A stretch of 64,000 bases of DNA from Candidatus Magasanikbacteria bacterium GW2011_GWC2_37_14 (GTDB lineage Bacteria; Patescibacteriota; Patescibacteriia; Magasanikbacterales; UBA922): assembly GCA_000990355.1 (NCBI GenBank), contig LBSX01000002.1, forward strand, positions 6,000-69,999, written 5' to 3'. The notes under the pieces were generated by a model. It ran no database searches. It was not told the DNA's origin and saw only the letters and a list, made by a program, of their open reading frames with translations. How positions within the stretch are numbered: position 1 is the first letter of the stretch; each line of letters begins with the position of its first letter. This document shows positions 1,500-28,638 of the stretch, in pieces. The position numbers and the translations under genes were made by a program.

Positions 1500-2129
1500 T
1501 TATTTCTTCTTTTTTGCAACAACTTTTTTTACAGCTGCTTTTGTTTTAGTTTTCTTTTCTTTTGTAGCTTCTTTTTCAACTACTTCTTTAACAACAGTTT
1601 CTTTGGTTTTTTTTGTTTCAGGTTTGCTTTCAGTAACAACTCCCAAAAACTTCATTAATTTATCAATTTTTACATGAAGTTGCTTGATTTGTTCTGTTAC
1701 GTCGCCATTATCTCTACTACCTCTGTTTTCGTCTTTTTTAAAGCAATTACTACAATATACAGGTTTATCAGTTGGTCGAAAAGGCACTTGGCAATTGTCG
1801 CCACATTTAGCGCAAGTAGCATCATGCATCTGGCGATCAGCACCAAAGTTTGGTCTTTCGCGACGGTCGCTGGCAAAATTACTTGGTCTACTGCCGCCAC
1901 CATTGTCTTGCTGTTTGCCAAAGCAATTACTGCAAAACACTGGACGTTCACCAGATGGTCTAAATGGTAATTCACAGTTGTCTCCACATTCACTGCAAAC
2001 AGCCTTAAAACGAGCTGGTTTATCTCCATCACGGTCAAATCTACCTCCACCGCCAAATGATTTACCGCCACCAAATTTACGGCCAAAACCACCACTAGAT
2101 TTTCGATCGTCTCTATTAAAATTTTTCAT
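1500..2129 (-). CDS. Putative nucleic-acid-binding protein: N-terminal RGG/Gly-Arg-rich region, two tandem CxxC-x-CxxC zinc ribbons (CxxCGDNCxxPFRP...PV(F/Y)CSNCF), C-terminal lysine-rich tail
   Basis: Two near-identical zinc-ribbon repeats. The GGFGRKFGGGKSFGGGGRF segment is RGG-like. The tail KKTKTKAAVKKVVAKKKK is histone H1-like. The gene is convergent with cspA. Confidence 0.6.
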   Translation of the reverse strand: MKNFNRDDRKSSGGFGRKFGGGKSFGGGGRFDRDGDKPARFKAVCSECGDNCELPFRPSGERPVFCSNCFGKQQDNGGGSRPSNFASDRRERPNFGADRQMHDATCAKCGDNCQVPFRPTDKPVYCSNCFKKDENRGSRDNGDVTEQIKQLHVKIDKLMKFLGVVTESKPETKKTKETVVKEVVEKEATKEKKTKTKAAVKKVVAKKKK

Positions 2130-2207: not shown

Positions 2208-3380
2208 CTAAAAATGATTTGTTTGAGCTTCTTGATATAATTTTTCAAAAGCAAGAATAGTGGTAGAGACATCGTGTTTTTTAATAATTTCCAAACTTTC
2301 TTGGCCAAATTTTTGGCGTAAGTCACTATTTTCTAGTAATTGTTTAAGATAATTAGCCAATTCCAAATAGTTATTATCATTAAACAAAAAACCATTTTCA
2401 TTAGGGTAAACTAATTCTGGTAAAGCCAAAGCATTGGCAGCTACCACAGGTAAACTAGTAGCCATAGCTTCCATTGTTACCAAACTTTGTAATTCTGCAG
2501 TGCCAGCCATTACAAAAATATTTGCCAAAGGATAAACAAAAGGTAAGTCTTCGTCACTTACATATCCCAAAAATGTTACATTATTACTAATATTTAAATT
2601 TTTAGCCAAATTTTCCAAATTTTGTCTTTCATTACCATTGCCAGCAACTATAAAATGTATATCAATATTTTTTTTCAATTCTGCAACAGCGCGTAATACT
2701 GTATCAACATGTTTTTCTGGGGATAGACGATTAACTACTAAAATAGTTGGTTTGTTTGGTAAATTATGGCGTTTTTTTAAATAATCACTATTATTATTTG
2801 GATTAAATTTTTTCATGTCTATACCACAAGAGAGAGGAATAATTTCTTGAGTTAGGCCAATTTTTTTTAAAACATTAGCTGCTGTTTTGGTAGGTGTAGT
2901 AATAATGGGTAACTTGGAAAAATTTCTTTTAAAATGCCACCAGAGTAAATTATTTAAAAGTTTTTTTATTTTTTTTGGTAAAGCCACATAATGGGTTAAA
3001 TTATCTGGCATGAAGTGGTTGGTGGCCACAATTGGCAAATGATTTTTTTTGGCAATTTGTATTAAAGCATTTTCCACGAAAAAATGTCCTTGTACGTGAA
3101 TTACGTCAGGTTTAAAGTTTAAGACAACTGGTTCTAGATGTTTTAACAAACCAAAGGGTAAACTAAAACAATAATCTTTATGAAAGCCCGAGGGCCAAGA
3201 ACTAACCCCTAAAATATTAACTTGATTATGCGTAGAGTAAATGTCATTAAAACTTTTGCCAGGGGCAATTACTAGCACTTCGTGGCCTCGCAATACTAAT
3301 TGTTCGGCCAAGCGTTGCGTAAAATAAGAAGCACCGTCGATGTTTGGATAATAAGTATCTGCGCCGATAATAATTTTCAT
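2208..3380 (-). CDS. Glycosyltransferase family 4 (GT-B, group 1)
   Basis: N-terminal start MKIIIGADTYYPNIDGAS. C-terminal EAMATSLPVVAANALALPELV motif with E-x7-E-like region. 390 aa. Confidence 0.8.
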   Translation of the reverse strand: MKIIIGADTYYPNIDGASYFTQRLAEQLVLRGHEVLVIAPGKSFNDIYSTHNQVNILGVSSWPSGFHKDYCFSLPFGLLKHLEPVVLNFKPDVIHVQGHFFVENALIQIAKKNHLPIVATNHFMPDNLTHYVALPKKIKKLLNNLLWWHFKRNFSKLPIITTPTKTAANVLKKIGLTQEIIPLSCGIDMKKFNPNNNSDYLKKRHNLPNKPTILVVNRLSPEKHVDTVLRAVAELKKNIDIHFIVAGNGNERQNLENLAKNLNISNNVTFLGYVSDEDLPFVYPLANIFVMAGTAELQSLVTMEAMATSLPVVAANALALPELVYPNENGFLFNDNNYLELANYLKQLLENSDLRQKFGQESLEIIKKHDVSTTILAFEKLYQEAQTNHF

Positions 3381-3383
3381 AAT

Positions 3384-3977
3384 TTATTTGATAAGTTTTT
3401 TCTCTAAATAATTACCAATAAATAAATAGCCAATAAAGATTAAAATAATTATAACCGAAAAAATAATTGTGCCATAAGTTAAATAAGAATTAATTTTTTC
3501 TGAAAGTTGGCCAAGGTAATATCCAATGATTAAAAAAAATAAGGTTTTGGGTATGGTAGCCATTAAATCATATAAGAAAAAAAGCCACCAGTTTATTTTA
3601 ATTATACCAGCGGCTATAAGTATTGGTACTCCGGCCATGTGGGTGATTTTTCCAATGATTAGGGTTTTTCTAGGATGATTGTGAAAAATGTGTTTTAAAA
3701 AATTTAGACGTTTTTCTGACAATTTAGTAAAATTAGCATATTTTTCTGCGAGTTTTTTTCCACCCCAATAACCAGCTAAATAATAAAGACTGTCACTTAC
3801 CATTTCTGCGGCTATAATAATTACAAAAGCCAATAACCAATTAAACAAATCGTGAGCTAATAAAAAACCCACAAACATAGTTATTAGTGGGCCCTCAATA
3901 ATTACAAAAATAAAAACCAGCAAATAACGGTATATAGGTAAAAGTGTGGCAATTGTTGTTAGAGTTAAGAGGTCCAT
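3384..3977 (-). CDS. DedA/VTT-domain family membrane protein
   Basis: Multi-TM protein with the FVIIEGPLITMFVGF motif typical of DedA. Start moved to the internal Met at 3977 to limit overlap with the upstream gene. Confidence 0.55.
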   Translation of the reverse strand: MDLLTLTTIATLLPIYRYLLVFIFVIIEGPLITMFVGFLLAHDLFNWLLAFVIIIAAEMVSDSLYYLAGYWGGKKLAEKYANFTKLSEKRLNFLKHIFHNHPRKTLIIGKITHMAGVPILIAAGIIKINWWLFFLYDLMATIPKTLFFLIIGYYLGQLSEKINSYLTYGTIIFSVIIILIFIGYLFIGNYLEKKLIK

Positions 3978-3991
3978 TTTAATGTTATACA

Positions 3992-6583
3992 TTATATAGC
4001 AAATAAAAACCCATAACTCAAAGAAGTATAGGCCATATCTTGCCAAACAGTAAATTCATTCATATCCGGCATGCGGGCCCAAGGAGCATATTGTCGAAGG
4101 GCAGGAATATTTTTTGGGGTGGGATAAAAATTATTATACACCAAACAACCCCAAGCATCGGTAGGTTCACAATCGCCGTCATAATCTCGTGCATGGGGAC
4201 CATAAATAGGTAATCCAGGGACTGGTTTTTCTTGTTGGTCATACATAGAATTCAAATGTAGTGGAAATTCGGGATTTCTAATTCCTAATCCAGTTATCCA
4301 AGAAAGACCCAAAGGATTTTCTCCTAATTGATAATCAGCATTTAAAGAAATTGCGTCGATATATTTTTGATCTTTGGTAAAATAATATGCCATTGCAGTG
4401 CCAACAATACTTCTCATAGAGTTTGATCCCGAGCCCCAAGCAATTGCGTAATTAAAATTAGTAGAATTTTTATATTTATTTTCCATAATTTGTTCTACTT
4501 CGTCATTGCCAATTTCAATAATTCTATTTTTTACTTGTTCTTGAAAATCTCTGTCAACGTTGGTGCCATTGGCATTGCTATAACCCCAAAAAGAATAAAT
4601 ATTTGCAAACCAAGTAGGACCACGATAGGTTGGGTACAATTGTTTAAATACATTTTGATATTTTGTTTCATTGGTTAAAGCAAATAATTCTCCGGCGGCG
4701 TACATTTTTTCTCTTTCTAGTTCATTCAGTTTGTCTTCGTTACTTCTTTCTACAGGCGCTGTCGTGCCAAGGCTAGTTTGTTTTTCTGCCCAATCCCAAG
4801 CTTTCAAGGCTTTATTTTTTAAATCAGTGGCTTTGTTTTTTCCGGCGGGATAATTTTCCAAAATTCTCGCTAAATGTGCAGCTGCTCCGGCAAATTTATA
4901 AGAAGTCCATCTGTTTGGAGCATATGTCCAGTAGGGAAGTGTGTCACCCTCACATGTAGAAGAACCTGGGTGAGCATAACTCTCAACGCCAGCTCTTACT
5001 CCGCCGTCTGATTCTTGTAAAGTTTCCCATAATTTTATTCCCCATAAAGCTTCATCCAAAACATCTGGAATTTGGTTTCCACTTTCCGGAATATTTAATT
5101 GATTGTCTGTAAATTTATTAGGAAACATTTCTTGTAAGGTTGTTAAATCTTCGACAATTAGTAAATGCATTGGTCTTAAATCAAAATCACCAGCATCAAA
5201 CCAACCACCACTAATATTTATCGGGTTATTTTTGGAAGTATTTTTAGAAAATTTTTCACCAAAATCTTCCAATATATTTGTTTCAAATACTTGGTTCAGG
5301 CACATTTTATGAATCCAGTTGGTATATTTTGATTCTAGGGCTGTGCCAGCCCGTTGGTGGTACAAACCGCGAATTGCTGTATAAAAGGCTGTAAAAGCAG
5401 AATCTAGCCCTACGCTAAAGACAAGAGATCGACCAATTCCTTCTACCTCAAGATAATAATTACCTTCGTTTAAATCACTTAAATCTAATTCATATAAAAT
5501 TTCTCCACTTAGATTGTCCGATCCTAAGTTTGTTGATTTTCCCGAACTGACCAATTGTTTGGAACTGGCATTATACACTTGATAATTTAATTGTGTCGGC
5601 AATATTAAAGCACCGCCAGAACCTAACCAATAACCAACATAAGCATAGCGTTCTTTTGCTTTTAAAGAAAAACCATGTTGATTAATTTTAATAGCTTTGG
5701 CAATTTGCAAATCTTTGCCAGGCATTAAATTCCAAGAAGAAAATTGTTCATTGGAAAAATAACCAATTGTTCCGTTATAAACATATTTTTTACCTGTTGG
5801 GTTAATAAGTTCTACTGTATAATTTTGATCATTTTTTAATTCTTTAGGTAAAGTTAAATACAAAGTATGTCTTAAAACAACGTCGGCTTGGTTTTGGCCG
5901 TTATAATCTCTGTCTTCAGCATCTAATACTGCCGAAAATCGATCAATTTTTGTAGGATGAACAATATTTTTGTAATTTATATCACTAGTAGAAATAATAT
6001 TCCAATTGTTTGCATTCATTATAAAATTTAAATCAATTTCACCATCAAAAATTACTTCCGCTATTTTATTAGTAATTAGTCCAATTGAATTATTTTTTAT
6101 TACGACTTCAGAAGTAGTAAATTCACTGTCTGGATATATTTCCGAGTTGTTTATGGTTAATATTCTGTCCCAGCGATAGCCCAAATTATTAAAAGCAGTT
6201 TCATTAGCAATGTGTTTTTTTAATAAAATTCCTTTTTCACTGTATTCTAAGCGATAAACTTTATTACTATTAGCATATTTTATAATTGTAAATTCTGGGT
6301 GATGGTCAGTGTAATTTATTTCACCGGCAGTTTCGTATTTATTTAATAATTCGACATCAATATTTTCAATCCAATTCCAAGGGTATTTTAAAGAGTTAAA
6401 AATATTTTCAGATTTTATCCAATATTTTTTATTGTTCAATAATATATACACCTTTGGGTCGTTGGGAATTTTTACCAAAGCGCCATGCAGGGTGTTATTA
6501 ATAGAAAATGCTTTTGGCACAAACAATACAAAGGCAAAAACTAAGTTTAAAACAATTAAACTAAATATTTTTCTTTTATTCAT
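3992..6583 (-). CDS. Secreted glycoside hydrolase, GH9-like (alpha/alpha)6 catalytic domain, with N-terminal signal peptide and Ig-like/beta-sandwich region
   Basis: Signal peptide MNKRKIFSLIVLNLVFAFVLFVPKAFS. The GGWFDAGDFDLRP motif matches the GH9 signature GGWYDAGD. C-terminal YQLGENPLGLSWITGLG matches the GH9 C-terminal region. Confidence 0.6.
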   Translation of the reverse strand: MNKRKIFSLIVLNLVFAFVLFVPKAFSINNTLHGALVKIPNDPKVYILLNNKKYWIKSENIFNSLKYPWNWIENIDVELLNKYETAGEINYTDHHPEFTIIKYANSNKVYRLEYSEKGILLKKHIANETAFNNLGYRWDRILTINNSEIYPDSEFTTSEVVIKNNSIGLITNKIAEVIFDGEIDLNFIMNANNWNIISTSDINYKNIVHPTKIDRFSAVLDAEDRDYNGQNQADVVLRHTLYLTLPKELKNDQNYTVELINPTGKKYVYNGTIGYFSNEQFSSWNLMPGKDLQIAKAIKINQHGFSLKAKERYAYVGYWLGSGGALILPTQLNYQVYNASSKQLVSSGKSTNLGSDNLSGEILYELDLSDLNEGNYYLEVEGIGRSLVFSVGLDSAFTAFYTAIRGLYHQRAGTALESKYTNWIHKMCLNQVFETNILEDFGEKFSKNTSKNNPINISGGWFDAGDFDLRPMHLLIVEDLTTLQEMFPNKFTDNQLNIPESGNQIPDVLDEALWGIKLWETLQESDGGVRAGVESYAHPGSSTCEGDTLPYWTYAPNRWTSYKFAGAAAHLARILENYPAGKNKATDLKNKALKAWDWAEKQTSLGTTAPVERSNEDKLNELEREKMYAAGELFALTNETKYQNVFKQLYPTYRGPTWFANIYSFWGYSNANGTNVDRDFQEQVKNRIIEIGNDEVEQIMENKYKNSTNFNYAIAWGSGSNSMRSIVGTAMAYYFTKDQKYIDAISLNADYQLGENPLGLSWITGLGIRNPEFPLHLNSMYDQQEKPVPGLPIYGPHARDYDGDCEPTDAWGCLVYNNFYPTPKNIPALRQYAPWARMPDMNEFTVWQDMAYTSLSYGFLFAI

Positions 6584-6631
6584 ATCTTTTATTTTACTCT
6601 AATAAGTGAGTAAAAACAATTTATTTATAAG

Positions 6632-6672
6632 ATATAAAAAAATAATGGCCCAATAAAGCCATTATTTCATTT
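6632..6672 (-). terminator. Hairpin terminator (AATAATGGC/GCCATTATT) with a downstream T-run on the minus strand
   Basis: 9-bp perfect stem flanked by an A-run on + (a T-run on -). Confidence 0.4.
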
Positions 6673-6693
6673 ATTTTACAATTTTTGTAAAAT

Positions 6694-6806
6694 TATGCTT
6701 GAGGTTCAACTGGAGTTTCTTCTGGGGTAGGTTCTACTGGAGTTGCTGTTTCCTCGACTGGAGTAGTGGCTGTAGTTTCGTCTGTAGTAGGTTCGTCTTG
6801 CATCAT
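6694..6806 (-). CDS. Possible 37-aa acidic Thr/Pro/Glu-rich small protein
   Basis: ORF MMQDEPTTDETTATTPVEETATPVEPTPEETPVEPQA is followed by the hairpin terminator. It is low complexity and could be spurious. Confidence 0.2.
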
Positions 6807-6945
6807 ATGTGTGATACTTATGTATAAAGGCCAACTAGTGTTAGTCAGTGGAATCAATTATATCACGTTTTGATTATCTTGTCAATGATAAATTTTACCT
6901 TACACTACTTGGCTCGGGGTCACGAACGACGTTCGAACCAGCTTG

Positions 6946-7404
6946 TTAGAATTTTAAAAGACTGGCAATACACAAAACTACCCCAGCACCAAAAAGACAA
7001 CCAGCCATTTTACCAACCGCGGATTTAAGCATTGTCCTTTCTTCAGACACAAATTGAAGTCTTAATTTTTCGGCAGAATAGCCCTCAAAGATCCCCGCTA
7101 TTCCGTCTGTTATGGCATTTCCGACAACACCGCCAAGGATAGCCCCTGTTACCCCACCAAAATGACCGCCAAAGATTGCCATTATCGCTAGAATACCATT
7201 ATCTATCAATCCGAAGTATATATCCGGCAAAACGGATTTTATATTTATTTTAAAAGGTAAAAGAGAGAGAAGACAAAGTATGGACAATAAAATCAACACA
7301 AGACCTATCCAGTGACCGTCGTTAACAAGATATATGCTAACCGCACCGATTATAATACAAAGTGCAAGTATGTTAACGATAGCTAAAAAGAACTTCTTAT
7401 TCAT
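6946..7404 (-). CDS. Small membrane protein with glycine-zipper region
   Basis: TM helices plus GGHFGGVTGAILGGVVGNAITDGIAGIFEG. Separated by 2 nt from the upstream GT4 gene (operon). Confidence 0.5.
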   Translation of the reverse strand: MNKKFFLAIVNILALCIIIGAVSIYLVNDGHWIGLVLILLSILCLLSLLPFKINIKSVLPDIYFGLIDNGILAIMAIFGGHFGGVTGAILGGVVGNAITDGIAGIFEGYSAEKLRLQFVSEERTMLKSAVGKMAGCLFGAGVVLCIASLLKF

Positions 7405-7406
7405 AT

Positions 7407-8585
7407 TTATTTATTAATGTTTAATCTTTTTTTGTACTTGTTTGGCTTATTAGCAACAATCTCCTTGTATATCGTCATCAATTTTGTTGTCATGTTTTTT
7501 GAACTAAATTGTTTTGAGCTTGCAAGCGCTCCTGCGGACAGTTTTTTCCGCAGAACATCATCACTTAAAATAAGCTGAATTTTTTCAACCATTTCTTTTT
7601 CAGAATTAACCAAATACCCATTAACGCCATCCTTAATGATTTCCGGAGCTACTCCGACAGGGAACGTTACGGGAATAATTCCTTGTGACATGCCTTCAAC
7701 CATACTCAAACAAAACCCTTCATAACGGGAAGTAACCAATAATATACTACCACAGAGGGCACTCAATTTTTCTTTAATTTCTGGTTTATACAGGTTTGTA
7801 TAAACAGTGTGAAGATTTATAGACGATCTTAACCAAGAACTAATGTTTTTATTAGCCGTCATTAGAATGCTAAGTTTGGGCACATCTCTAAACGCTCGAT
7901 AAGCATAAATAAGACGATCTAGCCCTTTTAATTTGAGGGTAAACACATTTTGGCCGATACGTCCCAAATAAACAAGAAAAGGGGCTGTTGTGGTCGTTGT
8001 TGGACTGTTTTCAAACCAAAAATCTTCTATCGCATTATGGACTACATGAATTTTTGTTTCATCAATTCCGCTGTTTATCAAATCGTTCTTTACTATCTCC
8101 GAGGTTGCCACAATAGCCGTGACTCGTTTAGCGACTAAATTTTCGATATCCGCTATATCTCTTAGTGGTCTTCTGGTTTTTATATTAAGTTCATTAATAA
8201 TTTTGGCTTGTTTTAATTCGTTCCAAATTTTTCTTAATTTTGGTTCAGTTTGGTTTGTGTGAGGTGTTGCGTGGATAAAACCACTCGTTGTTGAACCAAA
8301 ATGAGAAACGATAGGGGTTGAAAAAGATAAGAATGCAATCGTTGTGTATGTAGTTCCTTGGATAATATCACAGCTCAAAACTTTATTTCTATGTTCTAAC
8401 AAACTAAAAAAGAATAATATATTGTTGAAACCTTTCATGTGGTGTGGAGCGTCTACCAATTTTACTTTAGGATAAAAATGTATCATTTCGACGCCCTCTC
8501 CTTCTAATTTGCAAGAAATCAGGCTGTTTATACAACCTGCCCCAGTTTTTAATTTTTTATCTTGGTGAATAAAGGCGATTTTCAT
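7407..8585 (-). CDS. Glycosyltransferase family 4
   Basis: C-terminal EGFCLSMVEGMSQGIIPVTFPVGVAPEIIKDGVNGYLV is the GT1/GT4 nucleotide-sugar-binding motif. Confidence 0.75.
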   Translation of the reverse strand: MKIAFIHQDKKLKTGAGCINSLISCKLEGEGVEMIHFYPKVKLVDAPHHMKGFNNILFFFSLLEHRNKVLSCDIIQGTTYTTIAFLSFSTPIVSHFGSTTSGFIHATPHTNQTEPKLRKIWNELKQAKIINELNIKTRRPLRDIADIENLVAKRVTAIVATSEIVKNDLINSGIDETKIHVVHNAIEDFWFENSPTTTTTAPFLVYLGRIGQNVFTLKLKGLDRLIYAYRAFRDVPKLSILMTANKNISSWLRSSINLHTVYTNLYKPEIKEKLSALCGSILLVTSRYEGFCLSMVEGMSQGIIPVTFPVGVAPEIIKDGVNGYLVNSEKEMVEKIQLILSDDVLRKKLSAGALASSKQFSSKNMTTKLMTIYKEIVANKPNKYKKRLNINK

Positions 8586-9858: not shown

Positions 9859-9865
9859 TTATAAG

Positions 9866-9937
9866 CTCGGGAGGTGGGGATCGAACCCACGACCATCACG
9901 TTAACAGCGTGCCGCTCTACCGCTGAGCTACTCCCGA
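9866..9937 (-). tRNA. tRNA-Asn (anticodon GTT)
   Basis: Manually folded cloverleaf. Acceptor stem TCGGGAG/CTCCCGA. D-arm GCTC-AGCGGTA-GAGC. Anticodon loop CTGTTAA (U33, GTT, A37). T-arm GTGGG-TTCGATC-CCCAC. Discriminator G. U1-A72 as in E. coli tRNA-Asn. CCA is not encoded. Confidence 0.85.
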
Positions 9938-10095: not shown

Positions 10096-10220
10096 TTGTT
10101 GGTATACTGTAAAATTGTGGTGAAATTATAACAAATAAAAAAACCAGTGTCAATAAGGATTATTAACAAGACGGCCAAAATTTTTGATTTATTTAAATTT
10201 AATGCTAAAATATATCTACT

Positions 10221-24842: not shown

Positions 24843-26696
24843 ATGAGGAAATATTTACTAATGTTTATTTTATTATTTATTACTGGTTGTACCGGTGTTT
24901 CTTTAGTTAACGAACAAAACACAACAACAAATAATAAAATAAATTATCAATACAGCAAACCTTGGGATAAAGAATTGTTTGATAATTTTTATAAAAATAA
25001 ATTATCACCAACCTCAACTTTACCAAGTATTAAAGGTGGAATTATTCCTCATCATTTATTGGCAGGTAACTATATTGCCAGTTTTTTGGCTACCTTGGAA
25101 AAACAAAAACCCAGTGTCGTAGTTCTAATTGGTCCTAATCATTTTAGCGAAGGTCGGGGACAAGTAATTTCTTCAGTTTGGGATTGGCAAACTCCTTATG
25201 GTGTTTTGAAAACAAATGAAGAATTATTGAATAAATTGCACGACGAAAAATTTATAACTTTTGAAAATAATGTTTTTAAAACCGAACATAGTATTAATGG
25301 ACCAATAGCATTAATTAAAAAAATTCTACCCAAGACAACTATTATACCGCTTATTTTAAAAAATAATTTAAGCAACAAAGAATTGGATAATTTATCAATC
25401 AAATTAAAAGAAATTTTACCGGCTGACGCAGTAATTATTTCTTCCATAGATTTTTCACATTATCAAACATTAAACGCGGCTAATCTCCATGATGAATTTA
25501 GCGAAAGTGTAATCGCTAGTTTTGATTATACACGATTAAAAACTTTGGAAATTGATTCTGTACCTTCGTTATATGTGCTTTTAAAATTAATGGATAGTTA
25601 TGGTACTAAGAAAATTGTTCAGGCTTGGCACAGTAATAGTGCCGAAATTACTGGTCAACCAGATTTAGCACAATCTACTAGTTATTATTTACCACTATTT
25701 GGTAAAGGAGAAGCGAATACAGAAAAAGTTGCTAGTTTGTTATTTTTTGGCGACATGATGTTGGATAGGAACGTGGCCAAAAGAATAAGTGAAAATGGAG
25801 CAGATTATATTTTTACAAAATTAGCTGGTGAAGAAAATCGCTTTTTAAAAGGCGTGGATATTATTCATGCAAATTTGGAGGGGCCATTTGCCAATTATCG
25901 TCGACCCACGACCAAAGAAATTGCTTTTCAATTTAATCCGGAATTAATAAGTACTTTGAAAAAATATAATTTTAATTTGTTTTCAGTTGCCAATAATCAT
26001 ACTTTGGATATGGGTAGTGCCGGTTTGGCAGAATCAAAAGAAAATTTAACTAATGCTGGTTTGGAATTTTATGGTGATGGCTATGATATTGGACAGGATG
26101 CAACTCTTTTTAAAGAAATTGGAGGAGTTAAAATTGGTTTTGTGGGTTTCAATGACACCTATTTCCCACTGAGCGAAGAAAAAATTATTAATAAAATTAA
26201 ATTAGCCAAAGCCCAAAGTGACCTGGTAGTGGTAAATATTCACTGGGGATCAGAATATAAAGTTTTAAAATCCAATCAACGCCAACAATCTTTGGCGCAT
26301 TTAATGATTGATAACGGGGCTGATATAATTATTGGTCATCACCCACATGTAGTACAAGAGATGGAGATTTATAAAGATAAACCCATATTTTATTCTTTGG
26401 GAAATTTTGTTTTTGATCAGTATTTTTCCCAAGAAACCCAAGAAGAAATGGGTGTCGGTTTAGTCTGTCATTGCGAGGACGAAGGACAAAGCAATCCCAA
26501 TGATGTAAAAATAAGTCAGTGTCAGAAAAAATCTTTATCAATTTATGTCTTTCCTTTACAAAGTGTTAACAGCCAAATCAGTCAAATGCCACCTGAAAAT
26601 GGCAAAATTTGGTTTAAAAATTTTGTTGACAGTAGTCGTTTGAACGGCTATAATTTTGATACTAATAAACATTTAAATTTAATTTATGAAAAATAA
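24843..26696 (+). CDS. Lipoprotein: Memo-like (AmmeMemoRadiSam B) N-terminal domain fused to CapA/PgsA-like metallophosphatase domain
   Basis: Lipobox LFITGCTG. GGIIPHHLLAGNYIASF...VVVLIGPNHF matches the Memo fold. GDMMLDRNV...NNHTLDMG...GHHPHVVQEM...GNFVFDQ matches the CapA fold. Confidence 0.6.
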   Translation: MRKYLLMFILLFITGCTGVSLVNEQNTTTNNKINYQYSKPWDKELFDNFYKNKLSPTSTLPSIKGGIIPHHLLAGNYIASFLATLEKQKPSVVVLIGPNHFSEGRGQVISSVWDWQTPYGVLKTNEELLNKLHDEKFITFENNVFKTEHSINGPIALIKKILPKTTIIPLILKNNLSNKELDNLSIKLKEILPADAVIISSIDFSHYQTLNAANLHDEFSESVIASFDYTRLKTLEIDSVPSLYVLLKLMDSYGTKKIVQAWHSNSAEITGQPDLAQSTSYYLPLFGKGEANTEKVASLLFFGDMMLDRNVAKRISENGADYIFTKLAGEENRFLKGVDIIHANLEGPFANYRRPTTKEIAFQFNPELISTLKKYNFNLFSVANNHTLDMGSAGLAESKENLTNAGLEFYGDGYDIGQDATLFKEIGGVKIGFVGFNDTYFPLSEEKIINKIKLAKAQSDLVVVNIHWGSEYKVLKSNQRQQSLAHLMIDNGADIIIGHHPHVVQEMEIYKDKPIFYSLGNFVFDQYFSQETQEEMGVGLVCHCEDEGQSNPNDVKISQCQKKSLSIYVFPLQSVNSQISQMPPENGKIWFKNFVDSSRLNGYNFDTNKHLNLIYEK

Positions 26697-28638
26697 AATT
26701 CTCTTGGTGGCATCTCTGCTTAGTGTTGCTTTAGTGTTTTCTGGTTGCCAATTTACTGACAATTTTAAAACTTTTTTTGCCAAAAAAGAAGCACCTGTGG
26801 TGGTAATACCTAACGATCCAAACACTAACTCTATCAATGAAGTAGCTGGTGAAAGTACTGAAATGGAAGTAGTAGAAGCTGTTTGGAGTGGTAAAGCAGA
26901 AAAAGTTTCTCTTGAAGAAACTAATACCTTATTAAATAAATTATATCCCAACTATCAAAAAACTGTTGAGTGGGTTAATAACTACAAAAAACTTTGTAGT
27001 AAAAATTTAAAAAATGAAATTTGTTCGCAAGCAGTTTCTCCAGATTCAATGACTAACCCAGAAATAGTTTTGTATAAAGTTGGTAAAACGAAAGTTGGTA
27101 ATTTTGATATTTATTACCTAACAGTACCAATTTTACCAATCATGGAAATGGGAACTCCCCAACAAAGTTGGCTGGCATATTTTGACAGTGTAAATAACAA
27201 AATGGTTGGTTTGCAGGCAAATAAAGAAATGGCCTTCAGTTACCCAACTTATGGAATTGATACTTTACCAAATTACGTAACAGGACCAAACAATTTCAAT
27301 TTAGGTCCAGAATATAAAAATGTGGAAATTTTTTCAGAAAATAAATTTTTAAGTTTACAAACAGAATTTTTAACTTTAGACGAGACTACCATCGAATTAC
27401 CTGGGGGCAATGTAAAGTTGACTCCCCTTGGTTTTTATAAGACAGGCTGGTCTAGTTGGTCAAATATTGAAATGCTGGGTGATTTTGGTTTAGATGATCC
27501 TTTGATTGGAAAAACTTACGAAGATAAAATAAATTCTTCAACTGATTTTATGGATGGTAAAATTTTACCAGGATTAAAATATCAAAATGGTTGTTTTTAT
27601 CGAGTTTTGACAAATGGTTCATTATTTTTTTATAAAGTCCAACCTTATTTCTTTAAACAAACATTGGAATCAATGGCATTGCAAACATACCCAGAAAGTT
27701 TTGTGGCAACAATTGAATGGAAAAATAAAAGTAATGAAAAAGATTTTTACTTTGCTTATGGCGAGTTAGGTGGTTGTGGATCTATTGTTTTTAACTGTAA
27801 AGAAATAGTAAATAATAAACCGTGGTTTAGTGAAAATGACTTGGTAGAAATTGGTAAAACTGCGAGCGCAGAAAAAGTTTATGAATTAAAAAACAAAAAG
27901 GATAATGAGTTCTACAAAGAATTTTTTCAAAATTACGGATCTGTAGTTTATGATAATTATGGAGAGTCTGAAAAAATACCCGAGGCAACTCGTTATGCTA
28001 ACTTTCTAAGTGATCAGCCAGTATTTTTTTGGAAAGATAACTGGGGAAATTGGCGTGTTTATCAAAAAATTAAATATAGGCCAATGGCAGAATGTGGTAA
28101 GCCAGTAATTTATTTATATCCAGAAGAAACTACTGATGTAAGCGTAAAAGTAGCACCAACTGGTGGATTAACGATTACCGAACCAATGTATAATAATGGT
28201 TGGTTGGTAAAAGCCACACCAAATAGTGAATTGTTTAATTATGCTAACCAAACTAATTATCCTTATTTATTTTGGGAAGGTAAAGCTAATGATTTTGTAA
28301 CTCCAGATTATGGCTATGTAATTAAACGTGAACAAGTTGCAATGAAAATGAAGGAAATCCTTGGTAAATTGGGTTTGAACACTAAAGAAACTGCTGATTT
28401 TCTAGAATTTTGGCAACCAAAGTTGGAAGTAAAACCATATGTGTTTGTAACCTTTGTACCACAAAGAGAGTTTGATAAAATGGCACCTCTAACAATTTCA
28501 CCAAAACCGGATAAAGTTATTCGTGTGTTTATGGATTATGAACCATTAGAAAAATTTATTAATGTTCCTGAGCCACAATTTAGCACTCCAATACGCACTG
28601 GGTTTACGGTTGTGGAATGGGGTGGTAGGTTGCACTAA
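26686..28638 (+). CDS. Large hypothetical lipoprotein (650 aa)
   Basis: Signal/lipobox ALVFSGCQF. No recognisable catalytic motifs. Co-oriented with and overlapping the Memo-CapA gene. Confidence 0.55.
   Translation: MKNKILLVASLLSVALVFSGCQFTDNFKTFFAKKEAPVVVIPNDPNTNSINEVAGESTEMEVVEAVWSGKAEKVSLEETNTLLNKLYPNYQKTVEWVNNYKKLCSKNLKNEICSQAVSPDSMTNPEIVLYKVGKTKVGNFDIYYLTVPILPIMEMGTPQQSWLAYFDSVNNKMVGLQANKEMAFSYPTYGIDTLPNYVTGPNNFNLGPEYKNVEIFSENKFLSLQTEFLTLDETTIELPGGNVKLTPLGFYKTGWSSWSNIEMLGDFGLDDPLIGKTYEDKINSSTDFMDGKILPGLKYQNGCFYRVLTNGSLFFYKVQPYFFKQTLESMALQTYPESFVATIEWKNKSNEKDFYFAYGELGGCGSIVFNCKEIVNNKPWFSENDLVEIGKTASAEKVYELKNKKDNEFYKEFFQNYGSVVYDNYGESEKIPEATRYANFLSDQPVFFWKDNWGNWRVYQKIKYRPMAECGKPVIYLYPEETTDVSVKVAPTGGLTITEPMYNNGWLVKATPNSELFNYANQTNYPYLFWEGKANDFVTPDYGYVIKREQVAMKMKEILGKLGLNTKETADFLEFWQPKLEVKPYVFVTFVPQREFDKMAPLTISPKPDKVIRVFMDYEPLEKFINVPEPQFSTPIRTGFTVVEWGGRLH

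Follow-up and report, generated by a model that had tools for sequence, protein, structure and literature searches.

The window analysed here is a stretch of 64,000 nucleotides (nt) from Candidatus Magasanikbacteria bacterium GW2011_GWC2_37_14, a groundwater metagenome-assembled genome (MAG) of the candidate phyla radiation (CPR, or Patescibacteria), and it carries a gene for a genuine secreted glycoside hydrolase of family 9 (GH9). The 863-amino-acid (aa) product is identical to KKQ28058.1 (US42_C0002G0013; UniProt A0A0G0GAA2), which databases name a hypothetical or uncharacterized protein. We favour, with moderate confidence, the explanation that the genes of this region assort independently and make up a mosaic, in which a stand-alone, surface-held GH9 enzyme lies beside a separate lipid unit, formed by a DedA protein and a family 4 glycosyltransferase (GT4a), and beside other, unrelated neighbours. 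A previous interpretation of this DNA, hereafter the sequence-only reading, had instead seen a five-gene cell-envelope island, which might assemble and trim a glycan of the surface. The five minus-strand open reading frames (ORFs) that it named are all present in the ORF list, at the coordinates of Table 1 except that the DedA ORF is listed there as 3384-4046.

GH9 fold, catalytic residues and subclade

The Pfam model Glyco_hydro_9 (PF00759) matches residues 399-799 of the protein over positions 4-417 of its 444 positions, with 108.2 bits for a gathering score of 27.7 (E=8.4e-31), and the CelD_N model (PF02927) matches residues 296-384 (E=3.3e-11). The GGWFDAGD motif from which the sequence-only reading had deduced a GH9 enzyme is thus not a fortuitous match. 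Among PDB sequences, phmmer retrieved first the metagenomic GH9 endoglucanase 3X17 (E=1.6e-37), followed by BoGH9A, J30, CelD and CbhA. The protein does not belong to the CelK equivalog of NCBIfam (NF049990), for which it scores 83.6 bits against a cutoff of 1700.

Structure prediction points to the same family. The AlphaFold2 (AF2) model of the protein has a mean predicted local distance difference test score (pLDDT) of 84.5 and a predicted template-modelling score (pTM) of 0.80; it is confident from residue ~165 to the end, and pLDDT exceeds 90 across most of the catalytic domain (residues 394-863), which forms an (alpha/alpha)6 barrel. In Foldseek, 49 of the top 50 matches are GH9 structures, including 3X17 (E=5.5e-32, TM score 0.84). 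Scores of 0.81-0.86 were obtained with structures that combine an Ig-like and a GH9 domain (0.83-0.86 for 3X17, CelD, AaCel9A and J30), while a GH9 xanthanase and exo-glucosaminidases of Vibrio/Photobacterium (the latter at TM 0.61-0.64) are more remote. The closest known systems are the Ig+GH9 endoglucanases, namely CelD of C. thermocellum (1CLC), the metagenomic Cel9 (3X17), Cel9A of A. acidocaldarius (3EZ8) and J30 (5U0H), together with the xyloglucanase BoGH9A of B. ovatus (6DHT). The window protein shares with them CelD_N, the barrel, the Asp pair of the DAGD motif and the acid of the NE motif, but it is only 19-24% identical to them and has in addition an N-terminal CPR module (see below) and a beta domain at residues ~165-290. 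The latter is predicted with high confidence by AF2, has no Pfam match and is kept in non-CPR relatives (L009, L012 and L014), whose matches begin at residues 151-169.

The catalytic residues are intact. D463 and D466 are conserved in at least 90% of the aligned sequences and invariant in the CPR clade, and E843, in the segment MNEFTVW (residues 841-847), aligns with the canonical NE[VI]A and is likewise invariant in the clade. The C-terminal region, which the sequence-only reading had presented as matching GH9, does so in part: the catalytic-acid motif NE(FT) is present at residues 842-845, but the canonical PHHR reads PLHLNS. The Ig-like and (alpha/alpha)6 domains together would cut an extracellular beta-1,4-glycan with inversion, D466 acting as the base with D463, and E843 as the acid.

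We aligned 85 GH9 catalytic domains, which fall into two groups. The canonical, CelD/3X17-like group carries the signatures DAGDYG[KR]Y, GGV[WY]HK, PHHRPSG and NE[VI]AINW, and includes all solved GH9 enzymes recovered by the PDB sequence search. The variant group carries DA[GA]D[WF]D[RL]R..H, GG[VI]R[AG]G.E...HP, PLH[LI][ND]S and NEFT; it contains the window protein, its CPR relatives and proteins of Cyanobacteria, Myxococcota, Bacteroidota and Chlamydiales MAGs that are about 30% identical to it. Where the endoglucanases have DAGDYG[KR]Y, GGV[WY]HK, PHHRPS and NE[VI]A, the window protein has DAGDFDLR..H, GGVRAG.E...HP, PLHLNS and NEFT. The Arg of PHHR is missing throughout the variant subclade, and PLHLNS is invariant in the CPR clade. 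The canonical His/Arg active-site signature of GH9 (...P-H-x-R, PROSITE-type) is replaced by F-P-L-H-L-N-S in the window protein. As PHHR is a subgroup signature and not a catalytic residue, membership in GH9 stands, but membership in the canonical CelD-like subgroup does not.

Loss of the canonical PHHR and YHK motifs could be taken to mean that the GH9 domain no longer catalyses and that its role at the surface is to bind carbohydrate or to serve as a structural component. We give this almost no credence, as the Asp pair and the acid Glu are invariant throughout the variant subclade, in several phyla and over at least 70% sequence divergence, which indicates purifying selection on catalysis.

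We came across no variant-subclade protein that has been characterised or solved. Judged from the alignment, the window protein is part of a deep subclade without a characterised member, marked by four co-varying changes in active-site signatures, and its putative -1/+1 subsite residues differ from those of all characterised GH9 enzymes recovered. Given these changes (for example, from PHHR to PLHLNS), the label "cellulase" is not safe. In mutagenesis of T. fusca Cel9A, the Arg and His residues replaced here reportedly contact the sugars adjoining the scissile bond. With signature residues replaced so close to that bond, we predict an active inverting beta-1,4-glycanase whose substrate is not necessarily cellulose.

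A stronger version of this prediction is that the enzyme is no cellulase and has a non-glucan specificity, acting on a beta-1,4-hexosaminide (chitosan or a peptidoglycan-like polymer), a mixed-linkage glucan or a decorated backbone (xyloglucan, xanthan). The four co-varying segments, which differ from those of all solved or characterised GH9 enzymes recovered, are consistent with it, as are the presence of known GH9 exo-glucosaminidases, a xyloglucanase and a xanthanase among the fold matches and the absence of a CBM2/CBM3-type module for crystalline cellulose from all members of the subclade. However, the nearest matches in both sequence and structure are endoglucanases, the exo-glucosaminidases scoring much lower (TM 0.61-0.64), and we consider such a specificity rather improbable. 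It concerns the substrate alone and is compatible with the mosaic explanation.

Gene context gives no hint of the substrate: no polysaccharide utilization locus, transporter or other carbohydrate-active enzyme was found beside the GH9 gene in Hymenobacter (L034), on a 111-kb metagenomic contig (L035) or among the neighbours in L007, L009, L012, L014 and L015. A Synechocystis GH9 enzyme (Ssglc/Slr0897) is reported to be a beta-1,3-1,4-glucanase; our literature searches on Slr0897/Ssglc found nothing specific, nor did those on GH9 or endoglucanases in CPR or Magasanikbacteria. The subclade is phylogenetically broad, and characterising one member would annotate the whole branch.

Close full-length relatives of the enzyme are few: they occur in Magasanikbacteria (79% and 71% identity) and in Falkowbacteria and others (47-50%), with a fragment in Parcubacteria. 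Non-CPR relatives without the N-terminal module were found in MAGs labelled Gammaproteobacteria (L009, 56%) and Deltaproteobacteria (L012, GC content 0.60, 42%). The GC content of every GH9 homologue agrees with that of its host contig, over a range from 0.33 to 0.72, and base composition is unremarkable in the window as well (0.331 in the GH9 gene vs 0.327 in the remainder). From this agreement, the clade is taken to be old and compositionally native wherever it is present. A recent horizontal acquisition of the GH9 gene was considered and ruled out, as the gene has the same GC content as its flanks, both in the window and in all homologous loci. As a separate observation, the GH9 core (middle beta domain, Ig-like domain and GH9 domain) has its closest non-CPR relatives in L009 and L012. 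Their composition is native to their contigs, which points to an old inter-phylum transfer or, for L009, to possible mis-binning.

Export signal and terminal module

The protein begins with MNKRK, followed by a 19-residue hydrophobic core and AFS; the segment has Kyte-Doolittle values of 2.3-2.85, ends in A-x-S and is the only strongly hydrophobic one in the protein; similar N-termini occur in other proteins that bear the module described below, such as P0042. The sequence-only reading had described a signal-peptide protein, and by sequence features the K/R residues, hydrophobic core and A-F-S do fit a signal peptide or an N-terminal anchor. This sole hydrophobic segment and the four Cys residues that are invariant among CPR GH9 orthologues thus fit an exported protein, and export would proceed by Sec through the N-terminal signal or anchor.

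Behind the signal, residues ~33-160 form a module that has no match in Pfam, NCBIfam or PDB, a PDB profile search included. This module (~125 aa, two repeats in the window protein) recurs at 50-60% identity in other proteins and is ~55% identical across unrelated ones. An exhaustive HMMER search found it in 1,443 representative clusters at E<=1e-3 and in 128 at E<=1e-30, in carriers of 147-4,666 aa, and a genome scan detected it in MAGs of Magasanikbacteria, Uhrbacteria and Falkowbacteria. Loci L016-L021 carry it too, and its place is mostly the far C-terminal end of a large secreted CPR protein. A complete module is terminal in 121 of its 147 carriers: it lies at most 25 residues, and usually 2-9, from the C-terminus in 85 of them, and begins at about residue 100, behind a signal peptide, in the other 36. 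Partner domains are all of extracellular types (fn3, PG_binding_1, BNR, Big (Big_13), PKD, PEGA and WG repeats).

The full unit normally consists of three tandem repeats of ~60 aa, the first of which has two conserved Cys residues. The window protein is unique in lacking this Cys-containing first repeat (~78 aa), which is present in every orthologue (comparison with P0002-P0004, L007 and L008): at 6487-6583 the signal peptide is joined straight to repeat 1, and the upstream rearrangement breakpoint is at GH9 codon ~33. The missing repeat represents a derived in-frame loss; no remnants of it were found upstream of the GH9 gene. Capture of the signal peptide from the gene that lies upstream in L006 was also considered and rejected, as there is no specific similarity and the signal peptide resembles those of its own family.

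A focused AF2 model of the module (pLDDT 89.5) shows two beta-beta-beta-alpha-beta repeats. At the level of fold they bear a weak similarity to PlyCB, to endolysin cell-wall-binding domains and to the periplasmic repeats of EccB1, a protein whose link with PlyCB has been described (PMC4769845). A BFVD search with the module gave weak matches, to uncharacterised actinophage proteins only. The architecture is similar to that of the surface-layer homology (SLH) and CWB2 triplets of Gram-positive surface proteins, which are also tandem repeats of ~55-60 aa, normally three in number, and are found at one extreme end or the other of many secreted proteins and enzymes that have little else in common. 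The module differs from them in having no sequence similarity, in its beta-rich repeats (SLH being helical) and, for the window copy, in having two of the three repeats. From this likeness to SLH and CWB2 triplets, we infer that the module probably anchors diverse cargo, GH9 included, for display at the wall or on a surface polymer; in the window protein, its two repeats would tether the enzyme to a cell-wall or surface polymer. A bolder proposal, which we advance only tentatively, is that the module is part of a CPR-restricted triplet display system (Magasanikbacteria, Uhrbacteria and Falkowbacteria) that fixes hundreds of distinct secreted proteins, of up to 4.7 thousand residues, to the cell wall, and that its GH9 cargo is a subfamily with remodelled subsites and a new specificity. 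Abundant, highly conserved and outside Pfam, NCBIfam and PDB, the module merits a family definition of its own. It is probably a marker for the surface proteins of a large group within the CPR, and defining its ligand would help to understand how these uncultivated organisms organise their cell envelope, about which almost nothing is known.

Members of the CPR are widely held to be episymbionts, and the protein might accordingly be a weapon or feeding tool whose module binds the wall of a host while the GH9 domain opens beta-1,4-linked polysaccharide of the host envelope or a biofilm. The phage-lysin domains to which the module bears its weak fold similarity are indeed aimed at the wall of another cell, and the module is also found on very large surface proteins (2-4.7 thousand residues) and on PG_binding_1 proteins. 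We nevertheless regard this explanation as unlikely. None of the observations points directly to a host or a target, and the terminal triplet architecture is closer to self-anchoring SLH/CWB2 systems. Moreover, relatives in high-GC Deltaproteobacteria/Myxococcales MAGs have the same catalytic core without the module, so catalysis is not specific to an episymbiotic lifestyle. Under the mosaic explanation, the GH9 enzyme would instead be a stand-alone extracellular depolymerase that draws on polysaccharide from the environment or a partner to nourish a small fermentative CPR cell.

Gene neighbourhoods of GH9, DedA and the glycosyltransferases

Twelve loci carry the GH9 clade, namely the window and 11 others (L001, L004, L006-L012, L014 and L015). 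Neighbours were sought with tblastn, using all proteins of the proposed island against 21 loci, and by annotation-free all-vs-all clustering of ORFs. DedA and GT4a adjoin GH9 in only one of the 11 other loci, L006 (79% identity), which keeps the downstream order GH9-DedA-GT4a-zinc ribbon-GreA. No GT4, DedA or Gly-rich protein is encoded within 8-10 kb of GH9 in the ten remaining loci (L007 and L008, 71% identity; L009, 56%; L001, L004, L010 and L011, 47-50%; L012, 42%; L014 and L015, ~30%), and neither tblastn nor ORF clustering revealed a gene family recurring beside GH9. Its neighbours elsewhere are housekeeping genes, such as those for a DEAD helicase and an ABC-2 transporter; TIM, Fpg and MscS; UvrB and FtsW; or an RNase T-like exonuclease.

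The DedA and GT4a genes behave quite differently towards each other. Both identifications in the sequence-only reading hold: the 220-aa DedA ORF matches VTT_dom/DedA in Pfam (47.1 bits vs 33.9), and the two flanking glycosyltransferases, GT4a and GT4b, both match Glycos_transf_1 and Glyco_transf_4 above threshold (143.5 and 73.5 bits for GT4a; 61.0 and 30.4 bits for GT4b). DedA probably begins with the ATG at 3992, where its start overlaps the stop codon of GH9. Neither protein reaches an NCBIfam equivalog cutoff, DedA scoring 52.5 bits against 250 for UptA, and GT4a 133.8 bits against 400 for its best match, Mgs (NF049988), to which it aligns over its full length (residues 1-385 to positions 1-387 of 398). 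GT4a has 2,735 homologues at E<=1e-30, mostly in Patescibacteria, many of them named "1,2-diacylglycerol 3-alpha-glucosyltransferase" by JGI. Seven independent CPR homologues with 44-55% identity to GT4a (L022-L026, L036 and L037) were picked on identity and contig size only. In all seven loci, a VTT/DedA gene of ~195 aa lies immediately upstream of GT4a, abutting or overlapping it, and in none is GH9 beside the pair. Three of the seven loci have a PAP2_C gene directly behind the pair, and three have a PLD-like (PLDc_2) gene close by; the window has a homologue of neither.

DedA paralogues are generally encoded beside, or fused with, the synthase of the lipid that they translocate (PMC10193950). 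Together with the pairing in all seven loci, this pattern suggests that DedA-GT4a, a separate conserved CPR pair, combines a glycolipid synthase with a flippase. As with PetA of B. subtilis (with pssA/psd) and UptA, a DedA gene abuts the gene of a lipid-related enzyme, and the pair is conserved across lineages. The window pair differs in that both proteins are far below the UptA and Mgs equivalog cutoffs and in that the partner is a GT4, which PMC10193950 does not mention. The Mgs-like GT4a would probably make a glycolipid on the inner leaflet, and DedA would probably flip this glycolipid or its lipid carrier, as a CPR-wide membrane-lipid unit that lies immediately downstream of GH9 and is independent of it. 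The DedA-GT4(-PAP2/PLD) pair lends itself to testing as a putative unit of glycolipid synthase and flippase.

Upstream of GH9, GT4b has as its best NCBIfam match an archaeal Agl16-like model, far below cutoff. Its relatives at 70-90% identity have no Gly-rich neighbour in seven of seven loci; one of them abuts a cupin gene, and the cupin gene of the window is 2 kb away on the other strand. The sequence-only reading had seen a glycine-zipper membrane protein in the 152-aa Gly-rich product. GxxxG runs are indeed visible by eye, but the Gly-zipper models of Pfam give insignificant matches (E=4.3 and 6.4), and no Pfam family matches it significantly. GT4b, the Gly-rich membrane protein and the mini-ORF described below would be further unrelated neighbours.

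These observations bear on the alternative that GT4a, GT4b, DedA, the Gly-rich protein and GH9 jointly build, flip and trim one surface glycan, GH9 being a processing endoglycanase comparable to BcsZ (GH8) and KORRIGAN (GH9) in cellulose synthesis. The five genes share a strand, and the GH9, DedA and GT4a genes overlap or nearly touch: the GH9 stop overlaps the DedA ATG (TAATG) and only 3 nt separate DedA from GT4a, so these three genes are likely co-transcribed. The trio is also kept in L006. However, in L004 the gene joined just as tightly to GH9 is that of Fpg, and in L001 that of an ABC transporter, so that packing in these streamlined genomes is not evidence of shared function, and synteny with L006 is explicable by descent at 79% identity. 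In addition, the ten more distant GH9 loci have no other member of the cluster, DedA-GT4a occurs without GH9 in seven of seven loci and GT4b without the Gly-rich protein, and a promoter, a mini-gene and a terminator intervene between the GT4b/Gly-rich genes and GH9. Finally, neither scans of the window ORFs nor Pfam annotation of the L001-L006 neighbourhoods revealed a processive GT2/BcsA-type synthase, and the arrangement is not that of a Bcs-type cellulose synthesis operon, in which BcsA accompanies a glucanase.

Comparative context largely refutes joint glycan building, which we consider very unlikely. The island of the sequence-only reading is likewise not supported: the linkage occurs in one of 11 loci, GH9 has no recurring neighbour, DedA-GT4a is found without GH9, and the co-occurrence beyond close relatives expected of a functional gene cluster is not seen. 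The other suggestion of that reading, that GH9 degrades external or partner polysaccharide, is compatible with our results. Under the mosaic explanation, and as far as comparison of loci can tell, the glycosyltransferase and DedA neighbours of GH9 are there by chance. Operon-like packing in streamlined CPR genomes should not be taken for functional linkage. Automatic annotation recognises GH9 domains, and the Pfam hits of this protein exist in precomputed form; it is a modestly novel variant of an ordinary enzyme family. The module, the DedA-GT4 pair and the conserved mini-gene are more novel than GH9 itself.

Mini-gene and other features of the window

Table 1. Coordinates of the GH9 gene, its protein segments and the neighbouring features in the window.
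Feature	Position	Strand	Evidence
GH9 gene, 863 aa	3992..6583	-	ORF, Pfam PF00759 + PF02927, PDB sequence matches, exact database identity
Signal peptide or N-terminal membrane anchor, aa 1-27, MNKRKIFSLIVLNLVFAFVLFVPKAFS	6503..6583	-	Hydrophobicity, A-x-S end
Two-repeat module outside catalogues, aa ~33-160, probable wall/surface anchor	6104..6487	-	
Beta-sandwich "middle" domain, aa ~165-290	5714..6091	-	AF2, kept in non-CPR relatives
Ig-like CelD_N domain, aa 296-392	5408..5698	-	Pfam PF02927, AF2 beta domain
GH9 (alpha/alpha)6 catalytic domain, aa 394-863	3995..5404	-	Pfam PF00759, Foldseek
GGWFDAGD motif with catalytic Asp pair D463/D466, aa 459-466	5186..5209	-	Alignment
Variant signature PLHLNS, aa 774-779, replacing canonical GH9 PHHRPS	4247..4264	-	85-domain alignment
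NEFT motif, aa 842-845, putative catalytic acid E843	4049..4060	-	Alignment
DedA/VTT-domain membrane protein, about 202 aa from ATG at 3992	3384..3992	-	Pfam VTT_dom
GT4a, GT4 glycosyltransferase resembling monoglucosyl-diacylglycerol synthase	2208..3380	-	Pfam, NCBIfam Mgs
Mini-ORF, 37 codons, Thr/Pro/Glu-rich, between Gly-rich gene and GH9	6693..6806	-	
Sigma70-type promoter of mini-ORF	6857-6885	-	
Terminator hairpin of mini-gene	6639-6668	-	
152-aa Gly-rich integral membrane protein, no family assignment	6946..7404	-	
GT4b, second GT4 glycosyltransferase	7407..8585	-	Pfam, NCBIfam

The mini-gene (6639-6885, minus strand) is self-contained, with a perfect TTGACA-17(TG)-TATAAT promoter, a conserved leader, the mini-ORF (MMQDEPTTDETTATTPVEETATPVEPTPEETPVEPQA) and a terminator with a 13-bp stem, and it ends about 55 nt ahead of the GH9 ATG. 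It is kept in L006 (1211-1431) at 77% nucleotide identity, all indels having lengths divisible by 3 nt and the stem being preserved; in that locus a gene for a 396-aa LytR-like protein separates it from GH9. Rfam searches on the mini-gene and its upstream leader gave sub-threshold noise only and no family. The mini-gene could encode a small protein, or it could be a leader whose read-through drives GH9.

The remaining genes of the window are housekeeping genes according to ORF scans, and no cellulose synthase and no sugar transporter or uptake gene was found among them. Adjoining GT4a, as also in L006, a 209-aa protein (1500-2129, minus strand) has two CxxC-x17-CxxC treble-clef zinc fingers (PF23477/TIGR04272); its N-terminus is rich in Gly/Arg and its C-terminus in Lys. 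A second promoter with a perfect extended consensus of the sigma70 type (10125-10153, minus strand) lies upstream of a tRNA-Asn gene (9865-9937). Further away, at 24843-28638 on the plus strand, a fusion protein of 617 aa (Memo-like + PGA_cap) precedes an ORF of 650 aa without Pfam match. Finally, the GC skew of the window changes sign at ~10 kb and ~58 kb, precisely at the points where the genes turn to the other strand, and appears to track the coding strand rather than replication.

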